A stretch of DNA of 64,000 bases from a virus, in the IMG/VR virus record IMGVR_UViG_3300045988_159010; one strand, 5' to 3'. Below, one piece after another: positions 51,687 to 57,018 of this stretch. Both the position numbers and the translations under genes were made by a program. The notes below the pieces were generated by a model, which saw nothing but the letters and a program-made list of their open reading frames with translations, did no database searches and was not told the origin of the DNA. The stretch's first letter is position 1; every line of letters begins with the position of its first letter.

Positions 51687-52976
51687 TTATCCATTTAAAT
51701 CATACCCCAATTCTATAGCTATGTTTTCTATTACTTTTGGTAATATTTTTTGATCTTTCGCACTTTTCAAAACCCCAGTTTCAAAATATAATTTAAATAA
51801 ATAATTATATTTTTCTTGAAATAAATTACAAACTGATAAACAAGGGATAGAAAAATCACCATAAGTTTCTATCTAAGCTCCCAAACATCCTTTAATACAG
51901 ACATCTCTACACCAGCATTCTAAACACCTTGGAGCATAAACAGGATTAAAAGATTTCATTCCTATATAAGCTGTGGCATTATCACTTATTAAATCAATTA
52001 TCTCTGTTTTTTCATCATTTATTTTAAAATGTCCCCCAATTAAATGATTATAACAAGTACGATGACAAGGAACGATAGCTAAATCTCCAACCCTTATATG
52101 GACAGTAGACTACAATGCACAGCTTATTCTGTTATGTCTGTCTTCTTTATCTGATAAATTCATTAATCGTATAGGATCTCCATTGTGCTCATTAAATGTA
52201 GGAGTATTATTAGCCCCATCCCCTTTAAACATTGCATAAGCCATAGTATTAATATCATTATTGCAATCATTCAATCTATCTTCAAAGATATGTTTTAAGA
52301 ATTTTTTATAATTCTCTATAGATTCTTGAGTCCAATTATTATTTCGAACTTCTAACATATAAGGAGTTTTCTGCCATGAATTGTATTCTTTTAATTTCTT
52401 TTTAAACCAATCATAAGTTTTAATAGCTTTATCAACATTTTGGCTAGAAATCATAGGATGAAAGCCATCATTATTTTTTGTAGCAAATTCAAATAATTTA
52501 TTAAAATATTCATCATTTAAATTTTTATGTTCTCTAAATTCAGTGCTATACGGCCCATCAGTAGAAAATGAAAAATGAATTTCTACATTTATATCTTTCA
52601 TCTTTTGGATATATTTTTTTATTTTTATTACTTTTTCATTATCAGAAATAAAACTACCATTAGTAGGTATTACTAGTTTACCTTTTTCTTTTATTTTATA
52701 AGAAAATTCGTACCATTTTTTTAAATATGGGAAAAATACATCTAGTATATCAAAAATTAATCCATCATAAAATAGGTCTCCGGCAAATAATGACCATTCT
52801 AAAGGTTTTATTTGTTTTTTATCAAAATAATCTAATAATAATTTTAAATTATCTAATATCTAAGAATTAGAAAAATGTTCTGGATATAATTCTTTGCCAT
52901 AATTAGTTATATAACAATAATCGCATTTTTGATTACAGTCTTGTCTTATAATTAATTCTAATATTTCATTTTCCAT
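51687..52976 (-). CDS. radical SAM / SPASM-domain enzyme #1 (about 429 aa); 3 in-frame TAG
   Basis: N-terminal CNQKCDYC (Cx3Cx2C). C-terminal SPASM cluster CLECWCRDVCIKGC. Track ORF 52110-52601 is the middle segment. Confidence 0.6.
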
Positions 52977-53056
52977 CTTTTTTAATTCATGATTAAAAAT
53001 AAAATTCTAAAATAGAATATTTTCTTCCTATTGGAAATCAATAGACGTTGTTATCA

Positions 53057-54490
53057 TTATTTTTCCTCCAAAACTTCTTCAATAATTCCATTACAATATC
53101 TTCTTAAAAATCCACTATCTCTAAAGAAATAAGAACCAGTACTGATTAAACTGTTAAAAAAGCAAGAATGTATAGGTACTAATAATAATGCTGCTTTCAT
53201 TAAAAATTTATCATCATTAAATTTTTGGCTTATCTAATGCACTTCTCGTAAATTACATAATAAAGAAACAATCTAATTATATACATAAAAGAAACTAGAT
53301 ACAGATAAAGTTTCAAATAAAAAACAACAATTTTTTATATCTTCATCTTTATCTTTCAATGGATTTATATAATTATGATGATTTGCGGCGAATTGCTTAA
53401 TAATCCCAATTTTATCATTAGTATTAATATATTCTGGATTAGTATCATAAAGAGAGCTCTAACAATTTACTAATGTTCCATCATATAAAAGTTTTAAGCT
53501 TCCTGTTTTTTCTCCACAATATAAGAATGGAGTTAAGTTTCTATTAGCATTCTTTAATTCTTTATTAGAGAATGCTAAAACTTTATCAAGAGCTTCATCT
53601 AAATTAGAACATTCCAAATTTTTTAATAAAAATTTTTTTGCTTTTCGAGGTAAACACAATAATCCTTCAATAGAGTCTTTATCTGGATTATTAATTTCTG
53701 GATAGTGTTCTCCAATTGATTTACAAATTTTTATAAAATTACTCCAATTAATACCATCAATGCTAGAAGTATTAATAGGTAATTCGCTAGAGAAATTTAT
53801 AGTATTTTTGATAAAAACAGATTTATTTAGATTTAAATTAGTTAAATATTGAATTTTTTCATTAGCCTAAATAAAATACTATTCTATTTCTTTGTACTTA
53901 TTATTAAAATGATTTATGAGTTCATTACTAATAACTCCATGAATATTAAGAGCAATAGTAATATTATTAAAATAAATTGTATTTAAAGTTTCTATTAAAT
54001 ATTTTAAATTATTATATACTACTTTAGAATTAGCTCTTCTTACATTATCAGTACTATAATCTCCATCATAAGAAAACTGAATACAAATAAATGAATGTTT
54101 TTTAGTTAAATTATCAAAAGTTTTTAAAAAATCAATTATTTTATCAGTATTAGCCATGCCATTAGTAGAAGTAAAAAATTCATTAATATTGGGACATAAT
54201 TCAAAAAAATCTTTTAAATTTTTAGTAAAATGTTCTAATACTAATGTAGGCTCTTGACCCCAAAAACTTATTTTATGGATATTTAATGGATCAACTTCTA
54301 ATTTTTTCATAACATTTTTAATATTCTATAAATAACTTCCATCTTTAAGAGCCTTTATAGTCTATTCTTGCAACTATTTACTATATTCATTTACAGCCTA
54401 AGCTGAATGACAATATTTACAATTTAAATTACATCCGCAAGCTCCAATAATAGATAATTCTTCTATTGAAAAATCTGATATATATTTCAT
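53057..54490 (-). CDS. radical SAM enzyme #2 (about 477 aa) with C-terminal Cys-rich auxiliary region; about 8 in-frame TAG
   Basis: N-terminal GACGCNLNCKYCH (Cx3Cx2C). Track ORFs 53879-54310 and 53459-53659 are in frame. C-terminal Cys motifs (CLPRK...C, NCC, HSC). Confidence 0.55.
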
Positions 54491-54510
54491 TCCTTTTTCT
54501 CCTTTAAATG

Positions 54511-55026
54511 TTAAGTGTGCCTAGAACCGTAATGACTAGAGCATCCATGAGATGAACACCAGGTTTGATTAACTCCTGACCAATAGGAAGAATGATAACC
54601 TGAACCATCATGAGAAGAATTATAAGAAGTATCCCATCCTGCTCCATAATCAGAACTATCCCAACTACTATTATATCCACTACCTCTATGACTAGCGTTA
54701 TAACTTGCATCATGAGCACAGGTATCATTTATACTTCTAATTGTAGTGGTAAATCTATTAAAAATAATAGGACTAATTAAATCTCCTGCTGAAGGAGGAT
54801 TTTCACTAATATTTGCTCTTGAACCAACATAACTGCTGCTGGAAAAAGATTCTATATACTTATTTAAATTCTGAGCTAATTGAGCCATAGCTTGTGTTGA
54901 CTATCCTCCAGGAGTCGCTTGAAAATCACTCTAACTAGGGAAAAATTTTTTTCTTGCGGTATTTAAATTAGTAAAAATAGTCTAAATATCACTCCAATTT
55001 ATTTTAGAGTTTGAACTAATTGCCAT
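54511..55026 (-). CDS. Ser/Gly/Tyr/His/Trp-rich protein (about 170 aa); candidate substrate for the adjacent radical-SAM enzymes; 3 in-frame TAG
   Basis: C-terminal half reads SYNASHRGSGYNSSWDSSDYGAGWDTSYNSSHDGSGYHSSYWSGVNQTWCSSHGCSSHYGSRHT, with repeated aromatic-x-(D/N/S) triplets. ATG at 55024-55026 after GGAGGAAAAAT. Confidence 0.45.
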
Positions 55027-57018
55027 ATTTTTCCTCCTCGTATTTTATAAAATCAATATACTCTTTGTTAATAAATTGTTTAATTAGTTTATTATTATCA
55101 AGTATATGATTTCCTTTATTAAATAGACTATTTAAATTAAATAATACAGTATTATTTAATTTAATAAAATCTTCTTTTTTTATTTTATTTAATAAATCTT
55201 TATAAAACAATGGTAACTTATTAAACAAAATTTTATCATTAATTAAAATTAAACAAATAAGACTTAAACAAATTGCTTCTTCTTGTTTTATGTCTTTTAG
55301 ATATTCTTTATCTTTATCAGTTACTTCTTCTATTATAGATAAATTTACAATAATTTTATTAAAAATATGTTCGAAAATAAAATGATTATTTTCATATTTT
55401 TTATTTGTTAAATATTGTCTATAAAAATAAGTAAAAACAATTAATTCATTTATTGTCATATATAAAAAATTAATATCTTTACCCATACTTTCATTATTTC
55501 TATTATATACGTAAATAGGCTGTTCTAAGAAGGGAATTGCACCATTATAAAAATCAAAAATCTATAATGATAAAAATCTATCTTCATTATAAATAAATTT
55601 GCCATAAGAAAAATTATTTTTTATAAAAAATTCTTTATTATATAAATAACTATGAGCATCATGGATAAACTCATTTTTATCATAGGTCTATCCATTTACA
55701 ATTCCATAATTGTTATTTTCAGCATATATGTATAAATTTTCTAAAGCCTTATTATCATAAAAATAATCATCACTATCTAAACAGAAAAAATACTTATTGA
55801 AGCTATTATTAATTCCTAAAGTCCTAGCTGACGCAGGGCCTGATTTAGTTTTCTAAGTGTCTAATAATATTATATTGTATATGTTATTATAAGTTTTATA
55901 AAATTCATATACATATTTTTTATCTGGAGAATTATCACTAATTAAATAGATTACACAATCATTAATAATACTTTGTTTAAAGACAGAATCTAAACATTTC
56001 TAAAAATATATTTTATTTATTGTATAAAAAGGAATTATAATATCAATTTTTCCTTCGTTGCGTTTTCTAAATGTTCTCATTCTATCAGGAGCATACCAAG
56101 AATCAACGTTATTCCAAGATTTCTTTTTTGAAAAATCCTAAAAATTAGAAAAATCAACAAATTTTTTATAATATTCATTATAATTTGTTAAGAATAATTC
56201 TTTTTCTGTTTTAGTATATTCATCATAAGTTTTAGTTGATTGATCCCAATCAACCACATCTCCTGACCGACAATATTTACATATATTTTTTTCACATAGT
56301 TTTAAATTCTATAAATCTTGTAAATTTGTTTTTTCTGTTAGTTTTATAAAATCTTTATTTTCTATTAATGGAATTTGTTTAAAAAAATAATTACAGAAAT
56401 TATTTATGTGTGCCCCAAACTGACAAAAATATATTTTAAAATCTTTTAATGTAAAGCAAGGAATCCTATTTGGACAACTATATATACGAGTTTTATTATC
56501 TTGTTTACCTAAAGGGTCAACCAATGTCTAATCAAAGAAAAATCTATCATTTAAATATGAGATATTTTTATTATTGCTAAAATCTTTGTAGTCTTGATTA
56601 GGATATTTAGAAATACTTATATGTATATTTAATTCTTCTAATTTTTTTAATTTTTTTGTATCATAATTATTTAAAATTATACCATTAGTTAATATCTTTA
56701 TTTCTATCTCTGGGAGAATATTTCTAGCTATCTAACATAATTCTATTAAATTAGGATGTAAAAATGGTTCTCCCCCTAATAGCATTAAAACTTTAATAGA
56801 AGGCAAAGTTTTTTTTACTAATTTTAGCTAATTTTGAAAATCTTCGTAAGTAATAAAAAATGGAGAAGCTAAAGGAGAAAAATGATTACAATTATTGCAT
56901 TGTAGGTTGCAATGGTCTACTAAATGAATTTCTAATTCAAATCCATCAAAAACTGTAGGCCAAAATGCTCTAGTAGGTCCATCTCTATACTAATTTATTT
57001 TATTCACCTTCTTTTTTT
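55004..57018 (-). CDS. radical SAM domain fused to GT2-family glycosyltransferase (about 670 aa); about 12 in-frame TAG; GTG start
   Basis: N-terminal HCNLQCNNC and LLGGEPFLHP (rSAM). Middle CEKNICKYC. GT2 motifs DIIIPFYTI and CLDSDD. Track ORFs 56309-56524 and 55016-55486 are in one frame. Confidence 0.5.

Follow-up and report, generated by a model that had tools for sequence, protein, structure and literature searches.

The maturation of ribosomal products by radical S-adenosylmethionine (rSAM) enzymes is known in kind. TigE (Protein Data Bank [PDB] entry 8vpo) is an rSAM-SPASM enzyme acting on a peptide with repeating TIGSVS motifs (PMC10878394). UbiU and UbiV, of the U32 family, are 4Fe-4S, O2-independent aromatic-ring hydroxylases that form a heterodimer from adjacent genes (PMC6747719), with prephenate as the oxygen donor (PMC10990095). 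Here, we describe a ten-gene block (g1 to g10; positions 47392-57007, minus strand) in a 64,000-nucleotide stretch (the window) of IMG/VR virus record IMGVR_UViG_3300045988_159010, a large gut phage in which the TAG stop codon is read as an amino acid. We give a probability of roughly 60% to the reading that this block is a dedicated phage operon maturing one of its own products, the aromatic-rich protein g9, and that the mature product is protein-sized and either virion associated or released at lysis.

Like the cyclopropylglycine maturases TigE/TvgB and the thioether maturases CteB/PapB, the block combines a CxxxCxxC motif and a seven-cysteine SPASM-type set (in g7) with an adjacent repeat-bearing candidate substrate gene that has an N-terminal putative recognition region, and TigE is the best solved-structure match for both g7 and g8. 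It differs from these systems in its low scores (29 to 34 bits to TigE, below all NCBIfam cutoffs) and its lack of a recognition element (RRE) for peptides that are ribosomally synthesized and posttranslationally modified (RiPPs). It differs further in having two different rSAM enzymes in tandem, a presumed substrate of 150 to 360 aa with a folded head, and a phage-encoded setting among fibre genes. By sequence comparison, the locus falls outside the curated maturase families, the glycocins, and the full U32 cysteine pattern. The fusion of an rSAM domain to a family 2 glycosyltransferase (GT2), the U32-like enzymes, the glycogenin-like family 8 glycosyltransferase (GT8), and the phage/fibre context are without precedent in rSAM maturation. 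A full-text literature search (phage, rSAM, RiPP, YcaO, U32, glycosyltransferase, recoding) found no description of the system. A nucleotide search with 47-58 kb gave no match among GenBank phages, nor did tblastn with g9 give any; g10 matched in part only, its rSAM half and its GT2 half separately, and PHROGs returned only weak, uninformative matches.

The ten-gene block and its conserved core

Under the standard bacterial code (table 11), the region breaks into short open reading frames (ORFs), and with TAG read as sense it is one contiguous AT-rich block. With TAG as sense, ORFs of 150 aa or longer cover 61.7 kb of the window instead of 35.9 kb, and 9.6 kb instead of 3.5 kb within 47-58 kb; reading TGA as sense left long-ORF coverage of 47-58 kb unchanged. 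Nine of the ten genes hold one to nine in-frame TAG codons (g5 has none). Opposite the TAG codons of the window, standard-code orthologues carry mostly E, Q, N, and K, a profile like that opposite genuine Gln codons. The G+C content is 20-24% in 48-58 kb versus 29-36% on both flanks. Two IMG/VR contigs (188 and 105 kb) share 97-98% identity with the block, and against them the ratio of nonsynonymous to synonymous polymorphism (pN/pS; computed with TAG as Gln and including the low-complexity g9) was 0.04 to 0.16 for each of the ten genes and about 0.08 overall. The block is under strong purifying selection.

An earlier note, made by a model from the letters of the window and a list of its ORFs, had described an ultra-AT-rich cluster of three rSAM genes at 51687-57018. 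The cluster is borne out, with a CxxxCxxC motif in each of g7, g8, and g10. All motifs quoted for it were found (HCNLQCNNC, DIIIPFYTI, and DSDD in g10; GACGCNLNCKYCH in g8; CNQKCDYC and CLECWCRDVCIKGC in g7; and the triplets WDS, WDT, HDG, YHS, and YWS in the tail of g9). So was its placement between fibre gene sets, since fibre genes with a common C-terminal motif lie at 36952-41388 and 57430-63311. The interval itself lies inside a unit that reaches down to 47392. The bounds given for g9 and g8 hold, as does the stop of g7; its start is 53057, not 52976, and the N-terminus MITTSIDFQQEEN is conserved in L004. The start proposed for g10 (57018) is out of frame with its stop at 55004, and the likeliest start is a GTG at 57007.

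A hairpin followed by a T-run was read upstream of g10 (GCTTGAAAAGC, 15 nt, GCTTTTCAAGC, T8), and between it and the g10 start lie a -10-like box and a ribosome-binding site (Table 1). This region is the probable boundary of a separate transcription unit. The terminator scan missed the hairpin because its loop exceeds 8 nt, and promoter and terminator scans of this AT-rich DNA performed no better than on shuffled sequence.

Table 1. Genes of the block and the element at its upstream edge (positions in the window)
Feature	Coordinates	Strand	Description
Boundary element	57019..57075	-	Hairpin and T-run behind the upstream gene; TATATAAT and AGAAGGTGA lie between these and the g10 start
g10	55004..57007	-	rSAM-GT2 fusion with C-terminal helical region; 667 aa, 9 in-frame TAG
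g9	54511..55026	-	Presumed substrate; 171 aa, with a conserved ~103-aa head that is predicted to form three helices and closes with a near-invariant Cys, and a 68-aa tail predicted to be disordered and rich in aromatics, Ser, Gly, Asn, and Asp
g8	53057..54490	-	rSAM with twitch-like auxiliary-cluster motif; 477 aa, 9 in-frame TAG
g7	51687..53057	-	rSAM/SPASM; 456 aa, start shares one base with the g8 stop
g6	51437..51694	-	Small helical protein; 85 aa, always 3' of g7
g5	50586..51434	-	U32-like TIM-barrel paralog; 282 aa, next to g4
g4	49643..50575	-	U32-like TIM-barrel paralog; 310 aa
g3	49048..49683	-	Glycogenin-like GT8; 211 aa
g2	48299..49045	-	248 aa; confined to the window lineage
g1	47392..48267	-	Third U32-like TIM-barrel paralog; 291 aa

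Twelve related loci (loci are given L numbers) were taken from IMG/VR, ENA, and Logan, and their ORFs were called with the fitting code and clustered; most are TAG recoded and one is TGA recoded. Four families, g9-like, g8, g7, and g10, occur in all 12 besides the window. The order g9, g8, g7, and then a small ORF is fixed in 12 of 12 phage loci spanning 22-60% enzyme identity, with g8 and g7 usually overlapping or abutting, and this core order holds in TAG-recoded, TGA-recoded, and standard-code genomes. Mobile around the core are g10, the U32-like paralogs (10 of 12 loci), GT8 (in the window, in L006 with three copies, and in L016), and YcaO, which was found inside the cluster in six loci of three lineages (Pfam, 95 to 99 bits) with a ThiF-like partner in L006 only. 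The fixed g9-g8-g7 order, while the rest shuffles, points to g9 as the dedicated partner of g8 and g7.

The small ORF (85 to 147 aa) follows g7 in the eight mapped phage lineages and in L090. Homologues of g6 were detectable by BLAST only in L001 and L004 (the L004 orthologue is 42% identical), and g6 is possibly a chaperone or recognition partner. No match at E of 1e-3 was found for g2, which has a weak NTP_transf_2 match (E = 0.055) and a pN/pS of 0.12.

In GTDB species genomes, a scan picked up 12 more contigs that carry g8 and g7 as a pair; their bins belong to gut Clostridia (Gemmiger, Roseburia, Faecalibacterium, Lachnospiraceae, Oscillospiraceae, and a Clostridiales Family XIII isolate). 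The isolate is Clostridiales Family XIII bacterium PM5-7; its locus (L090) is in the standard code and has the window gene set in nearly the same order, with a large terminase gene three genes from the cassette. At the distant loci L092, L093, L095, and L098, the ORF just upstream of g8 weakly matches the g9-head profile (E = 1e-4 to 4e-3, above noise), and at L094 inspection by eye showed a g9-like gene some 1 kb upstream of g8. L016 (IMGVR_UViG_3300028048_000052) looks TGA recoded and carries the cassette, as does the standard-code L090, so the module has either moved across genetic-code changes or persisted through them. In L089 (binned as Muribaculaceae; 21% G+C), two full precursor-g8-g7 cassettes, whose tails are of different types, share one stretch of 17 kb with three rSAM-GT2 genes and three U32-like genes.

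In Pfam, NCBIfam, and PHROGs, g9 matched no family. By profile search, its family comprises 33 clusters at 90% identity and, at 50% identity, 404 representatives among 1.84 billion proteins (222 with E <= 1e-10). The proteins are 150 to 360 aa long and consist of a head of ~100 to 135 aa (near-invariant L21, R25, P78, G81, L83, and C103) and a tail of up to about 260 aa made almost wholly of Y/F/H/W, S, G, N, T, A, D, and R/K/Q. In a set of 30 members, aromatic residues make up 21.7% of tails versus 7.4% of heads, and V, I, L, and M together 2.3% versus 22.3%. Successive aromatics are spaced by four in 33.6% of cases in g9 tails versus 10.3 ± 1.3% after shuffling (maximum of 500 shuffles, 14.9%). 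Tail motifs vary by lineage (GSYDGSYRGSYD, NFTSAANKGNFSS, SQYNGQYSSQY, FNSSFNAS, DNGFRSSDF, and CYSGCYWGCY), and high-GC distant lineages have tails of S-N-G-T/K/C pentads with few aromatics. Each locus has a single ORF that the head profile matches, and the window has no other match.

The tail evolves far faster than the head. In close pairs, heads are 88-97% identical and tails 40-86%, with the repeat number changing (e.g., 88% versus 40% and 96% versus 67%). This conserved head joined to a hypervariable tail is, on sequence grounds, the leader/core-like pattern of a recognition region joined to a modified region. RiPP precursors are recognized by a conserved and a variable region beside modifying enzymes, and g9 shows both, in this identity contrast and in the synteny of the 12 loci. 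Compared with L001, g9 has 10 synonymous and 3 nonsynonymous substitutions, and compared with L002, it has 10 and 0; with these counts in the g9 frame, a +1-frame ORF (54504-54728) was rejected as the true gene. An N-x-S/T sequon was likewise rejected as a universal tail feature, being enriched in just 22 of 42 tails.

The AlphaFold2 model of g9 (mean predicted local distance difference test [pLDDT] score, 56) places helices at residues 11-28, 44-63, and 86-101, with a pLDDT of 65 to 80 in the head and about 30 in the tail. A fold search with this model gave no match at E below 1 and no solved structure alike. Neither a signal peptide nor a double-Gly-type cleavage motif was seen in g9. Five of the 150 best g9 representatives (P0143, P0283, P0286, P0302, and P0353) carry a C-terminal Hint/intein-like domain right after the tail, with nothing beyond it. 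Such a domain argues for processing or ligation of the C-terminus of the tail (by autocleavage or through a thioester) and for the polypeptide itself as the product. The observation covers 507-1628 of L099, and the gene following P0143 is a 490-aa ORF in the g8 position.

Enzyme families and their nearest relatives

The CxxxCxxC motif of the Radical SAM superfamily is invariant in g7, g8, and g10. A SPASM domain was taken as C-x(9-15)-G-x4-C, Cx2Cx5Cx3C, and a final C, and a twitch domain as C-x(9-15)-G-x4-C plus one more Cys. Across seven orthologues, g7 keeps C41xxxC45xxC48, C313, C331, C378x2C381x5C387x3C391, and C410; the second half of its SPASM pattern is exact, and in the first half the Cys pair is spaced by 17, with Gly 6 residues before the second Cys (TIGR04085, 17.8 bits; cutoff, 27). 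Its score against PF04055 is 18.9 bits, below the cutoff of 29.5, which g8 exceeds (Pfam Radical_SAM, 31.4 bits). Invariant in g8 are C20xxxC24xxC27, C325, D337, G338, C343, and C443. Its twitch-like motif reads FLYC-x13-G-x4-C (C325, G338, and C343; C-x17-C) plus C443, and no curated twitch model matched. From these motifs, g7 looks like a SPASM-type and g8 like a twitch-like rSAM enzyme.

The best NCBIfam models for g7 were the nif11-type rSAM maturase (29 bits) and PapB (27.5 bits, full-length alignment), and those for g8 were the PapB, YhhB, and CbpB peptide maturases (23 to 25 bits). Family profiles against the PDB ranked TigE (8vpo) first for both (g7, E = 3.5e-6, followed by CteB at 2e-3; g8, E = 1.9e-7). 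By these comparisons, g7 and g8 stand closest, among named or solved proteins, to peptide maturases (TigE, CteB, and PapB-like). The metabolic identities QueE, NrdG, MoaA, and anSME were rejected for g7 and g8 (<=18 bits, aligned only over the cluster-binding loop); the earlier note had named a QueE-, NrdG-, or AnSME-like classification as the outcome that would speak against it. In L024, the g7 orthologue (7508-8761) has lost CxxxCxxC but not its SPASM cysteines and is possibly a partner without catalytic activity.

The resemblance to substrates of cyclophane-forming maturases that the earlier note saw in the tail of g9 does not extend to membership of those enzyme families: g7 scored 16.1 bits against XyeB (cutoff, 450) and 15.4 against YhhB (445), g8 24.6 against YhhB, and g10 18.4 against FxsB (370). 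Like the triceptide systems (XyeB, GrrM/OscB, FxsB, and YhhB), the locus sets aromatics at short regular spacing beside an rSAM/SPASM enzyme. Some tails have F-x-S, Y-x-D, and Y-x-N, the third residue of WDS, YNS, and FTS has a Cβ, and a second protein of L004 has a pure (Y-x-x)n run. Unlike those systems, it scores 15 to 25 bits where cutoffs are 370 to 450, its dominant tail period is 4 rather than 3, and the third position is often Gly (Y-D-G-S and Y-R-G-S in L004), which has no Cβ and so makes such a cross-link impossible there.

The three Cys-motif paralogs that had been listed as an unknown family (g1, g4, and g5) form a real and large one (at least 264 clusters) with three invariant cysteines (C192-x3-C196...C221), and its fold is now seen to be U32-like. 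A family model from a deep alignment is a confident TIM barrel (pLDDT, 91.3) whose best structural match is peptidase U32. U32 (PF01136) is also the only recurrent Pfam match, below cutoff, with 11 of 45 members at E <= 1 (best, 6e-4); the next family had six members at E >= 0.045. The paralog-family profile against PDB sequences gave noise only, and hhalign of the family against single Escherichia coli UbiU and UbiV sequences was not significant, so that the U32 link came via the predicted fold. The full four-cysteine U32 pattern (CX6CX15CX3/4C or CXnCX12CX3C) is absent, and the CX3C resembles the one in UbiV. The paralogs are presumed, from the modelled fold, to be U32-like Fe-S enzymes. They share with UbiU/UbiV, RlhA, and TrhP a similar position of the conserved cysteines, including CX3C, and the adjacent paralog pair, and they differ in scoring below the Pfam cutoff and in the number (three invariant) and spacing of their cysteines; the substrates known for U32 enzymes, namely quinone precursors and RNA bases, are not proteins.

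A g5-type and a g4-type gene are adjacent in the window, L004, L013, L089, and L090, and orthologues of g1 (41-44% identical) occur in L008, L009, L011, L012, and L090; L090 holds a separate orthologue of each of the three. Shikimate-pathway genes lie beside the U32-like genes in two unrelated lineages, namely a chorismate mutase in L006 (5707-5964; 65 bits) and a 3-deoxy-D-arabino-heptulosonate 7-phosphate (DAHP) synthase in L090 (12067-12885; 244 bits). The adjacent g5 and g4 types, the one-to-one orthologues in L090, and the shikimate genes next door fit a UbiU/UbiV-like model. The shikimate genes may supply prephenate, or else Tyr, Phe, and Trp for the aromatic-rich protein.

Both halves of g10 exceed their Pfam cutoffs (Radical_SAM, 43.5 bits, cutoff 29.5; Glycos_transf_2, 58.9 bits, cutoff 23.3), and a DxD motif (D411xD413) accompanies the GT2 match. 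At least 217 clusters make up the unnamed g10 family, most of them from contigs near 200 kb in length; across 29 sequences, C33xxxC37xxC40, GGE78-80, C195, C243, and D411xD413 are invariant and C246 and D358 are nearly so. The best PDB matches were TarP, TarS, and GalT1 (83 to 69 bits) for the GT2 half, and 7wzv (an unnamed structure, 55 bits), then viperins, MoaA, and BlsE, for the rSAM half. Viperin, MoaA, and BlsE act on nucleotides or nucleoside sugars, which suggests by analogy that the rSAM half of g10 works on a sugar or its donor.

The GT8 neighbour noted earlier is real and, by its family profile, glycogenin-like. Alone, g3 falls just below the Pfam Glyco_transf_8 cutoff (23.9 bits; cutoff, 24.3), and the PDB searched with a five-member profile gave glycogenin-1 and -2 as best matches (72 bits; E = 6.5e-19); the DxD motif (D97-A-D99) is invariant. 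Glycogenin is the classic tyrosine-glucosylating enzyme. The locus resembles glycogenin and the serine-rich-repeat adhesin pathway in this match, in the GT2 match of g10 to GalT1 of the Fap1 pathway, and in its Ser/Tyr-rich candidate substrate; it differs in that g3 is a 211-aa catalytic core only and no GtfA/B-type initiating enzyme is present. An analogy drawn earlier between the GT2 domain and S/O-glycosylating glycocin enzymes is weak, as no SunS-like protein is among the 33 PDB matches listed. As with the sublancin-type glycocins of prophage SPβ, the cluster is phage borne and its GT2 enzyme would add sugar to a product made by ribosomes. Unlike their substrates, g9 is no small disulfide-stapled helical hairpin but a 171-aa protein with a disordered tail, and the rSAM, U32-like, and GT8 enzymes have no glycocin counterpart.

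Proposed maturation of g9 and alternative readings

We propose that the three-helix head of g9 is a recognition or handling domain and that its disordered aromatic/Ser/Asn/Gly tail is the part to be modified. The translationally coupled g8 and g7 would carry out radical chemistry on the repeats, most plausibly giving cross-links or other C-H functionalization at or next to the aromatics. The U32-like g5/g4 pair, in its UbiU/UbiV-like arrangement, together with g1 would hydroxylate aromatic rings without O2, with prephenate as the oxygen donor. GT8 g3 and the GT2 half of g10 would add sugars to Tyr, hydroxylated aromatics, Ser, or Thr, and the rSAM half of g10 would tailor the sugar or nucleotide sugar. 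The product would stay protein-sized and be displayed on the virion, given the place of the cluster among fibre genes, or be released at lysis. In recoded phages, in-frame TAG codons point to late expression, and the operon would be expressed late.

Aromatic-ring chemistry has precedents in three classes of enzyme in the block (rSAM-SPASM cross-linkers, U32 hydroxylases, and glycogenin), and aromatics mark most of the tails. YcaO in three lineages, joined by a ThiF-like protein in L006, adds peptide-backbone enzymes acting on Ser, Thr, or Cys. The RiPP- or glycopeptide-like maturation of a Ser/Gly/Tyr/His/Trp-rich substrate that the earlier note had suggested is supported by the g9-g8-g7 order, the head/tail pattern, the SPASM-type motif of g7, the nearness of g7 and g8 to peptide maturases, and the YcaO genes. 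Of the targets it had offered, a virion or fibre protein still fits, and a small secreted peptide is less likely for a folded-head protein of 150 to 360 aa in a cluster with no protease or exporter.

Several points weigh against this proposal. The chemical steps are predicted from family precedent. The scores of g7 and g8 (<=29 bits) stand against curated cutoffs of 300 to 520, so that any reaction type assigned to them is tentative, and enzymes whose SAM motifs begin at residues 41 (g7) and 20 (g8) leave no room for an N-terminal RRE. Homology to U32 is remote, given the nonsignificant hhalign result and a C-x3-C...C spacing that differs from CX6CX15CX3/4C, and the shikimate genes could simply supply Tyr, Phe, and Trp. 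The head of g9 is modelled with only moderate confidence and matched no known fold. Its tails share no universal residue pattern, given the pentads of the distant lineages and the partial enrichment of the sequon, and a place for g9 in the virion is conjecture.

A more specific form of the proposal, which we hold to be rather unlikely, is an anaerobic cross-linked glyco-adhesive of the 3,4-dihydroxyphenylalanine (DOPA) type. Its Tyr, Phe, His, and Trp side chains would be hydroxylated by the U32-like enzymes in a prephenate-dependent manner, the phenolic groups so made would be glycosylated by the glycogenin-like GT8 and the rSAM-GT2 fusion, and its repeats would be stapled by the two rSAM enzymes; this hypervariable product would sit on or next to the tail fibres as a quickly changing means of binding host or mucus.

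A classical RiPP, with the head of g9 as a cleaved leader and the tail or its repeats freed at lysis as small antimicrobial, signal, or antidefence peptides, would account for the leader/core evolution of g9; it is the main rival, and we judge it rather unlikely. Repeat precursors of the TigB/TvgA type do yield several identical products (PMC10878394), and YcaO (accompanied at one locus by ThiF) is a usual companion of small RiPPs. Peptidases occur near the cassette in L008 to L012, L014, and L016 (M28/M20-like enzymes a few genes upstream of the cassette in L008 to L012 and before the rSAM-GT2 gene in L014, and a papain-like protease in L016). No protease or transporter match was found for g1 to g11 of the window in Pfam, NCBIfam, or PHROGs, however, and the clusters of L004 and L090 likewise have neither protease nor exporter. 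The absence of a visible signal peptide or double-Gly motif in g9, tails of up to about 260 aa, and the Hint domain in 5 of 150 representatives, which suggests C-terminal processing rather than leader removal, also speak against small peptides.

The enzymes might instead build or remodel a glycan or small molecule (e.g., a host wall polymer, as TarP does, or an odd nucleotide sugar), leaving g9 as an unmodified low-complexity structural or phase-separating protein whose coexpression with them is incidental. Consistent with this are the GT2 matches to the teichoic-acid enzymes TarP and TarS, the likeness of the g10 rSAM half to viperin, MoaA, and BlsE (nucleotide or sugar-nucleotide enzymes), and the symporter genes in L006, L013, and L016. 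The tails also resemble the low-complexity [G/S]Y[G/S] segments of FUS-type proteins. We nonetheless regard this reading as quite unlikely, as it leaves unexplained the fixed g9-g8-g7 order amid shuffling, the nearness of g7 and g8 to peptide maturases, the YcaO genes joining the cluster, and the presence in these phages of a second and a third rSAM/repeat-protein pair.

Very unlikely is a g9 scaffold from which a quinone-like redox cofactor is carved (as with pyrroloquinoline quinone [PQQ] and mycofactocin) and then glycosylated: rSAM-SPASM plus GT2 recalls MftC/MftF, of which MftF glycosylates mycofactocin, there are weak matches to QhpD, PqqE, and mycofactocin rSAM models, and hydroxylase-like and shikimate-pathway genes are present, but those matches reach 14 to 18 bits, cofactor precursors are short and conserved whereas the tails are long, hypervariable, and changing in repeat number, and no equivalents of PqqB/C/D or MftB/D/E were found in Pfam or NCBIfam.

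Genomic surroundings and implications

Fibre genes with the common C-terminal motif lie beside the cassette not only in the window but in L004, L009, and the distant L091 and L095. Other rSAM/repeat-protein pairs occur in these phages. A CXXX-repeat-target rSAM maturase is encoded at 23638-24936 of the window (minus strand; TIGR04115, 381 bits; cutoff, 350), and directly downstream of it (22775-23635, minus strand) lies a 286-aa protein with ~135 residues of CxxxC repeats followed by an ordinary domain of ~150 aa. In L004, a 53%-identity relative from a Hadza gut sample, three more rSAM genes (404, 400, and 320 aa; 1505-5878) lie around the gene of a 340-aa protein that has at its N-terminus a period-3 run of (YSR/YSN/YDN)n. 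What look like Ig-like domains follow this run, and the set lies just before a fibre gene.

Just downstream of the operon are tRNA genes for Gly(UCC) (41526-41599), Tyr(GUA) (45277-45363), Pro(UGG) (46598-46670), and Thr(UGU) (47253-47326), all on the minus strand; no TAG suppressor tRNA was found in the window. Between the operon and the next fibre genes, three minus-strand ORFs (42031-42477, 42875-43633, and 45902-46471) were judged by their motifs to be HNH/GIY-YIG homing endonuclease-like, and the GIY-YIG ORF has a relative in L011 (52% identity). Also on the minus strand are a secreted protein (35779-36843) whose L004 homologue has an S-layer homology (SLH) domain, a hint that the host is a Firmicute with SLH-anchored wall polymers; an 827-aa protein (30755-33238) with an N-terminus reminiscent of major-vault-protein repeats; and a 512-aa protein (33817-35355) resembling DUF2828/TROVE, the last two by reading of the sequence. 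A 17-bp perfect hairpin with a T-run (57907-57943, minus strand) separates a Gly-rich fibre gene from a 144-aa fibre gene, and 36 nt of it are inverted in L001.

If the proposed maturation of g9 is true, a clade of abundant gut phages of Clostridia, which includes contigs of ~200 kb, many of them with recoded stop codons, spends about 10 kb on the multienzyme maturation of one small, fast-diversifying protein. The enzyme families involved are new and comprise the rSAM-GT2 fusion (at least 217 clusters), an rSAM pair far from the curated classes, and a phage branch of U32-like proteins. With more than 400 natural tail variants on one conserved head, the system would be attractive for peptide-modification engineering, and the standard-code L090 offers a practical experimental entry. 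The U32-like genes near chorismate mutase and DAHP synthase make the idea of prephenate as an oxygen donor testable on a protein substrate, which, were the glyco-adhesive form true, would be the first protein substrate of the U32 hydroxylase class. The proposed maturation would also bear on the chemical modification of virion surfaces under anoxic conditions.

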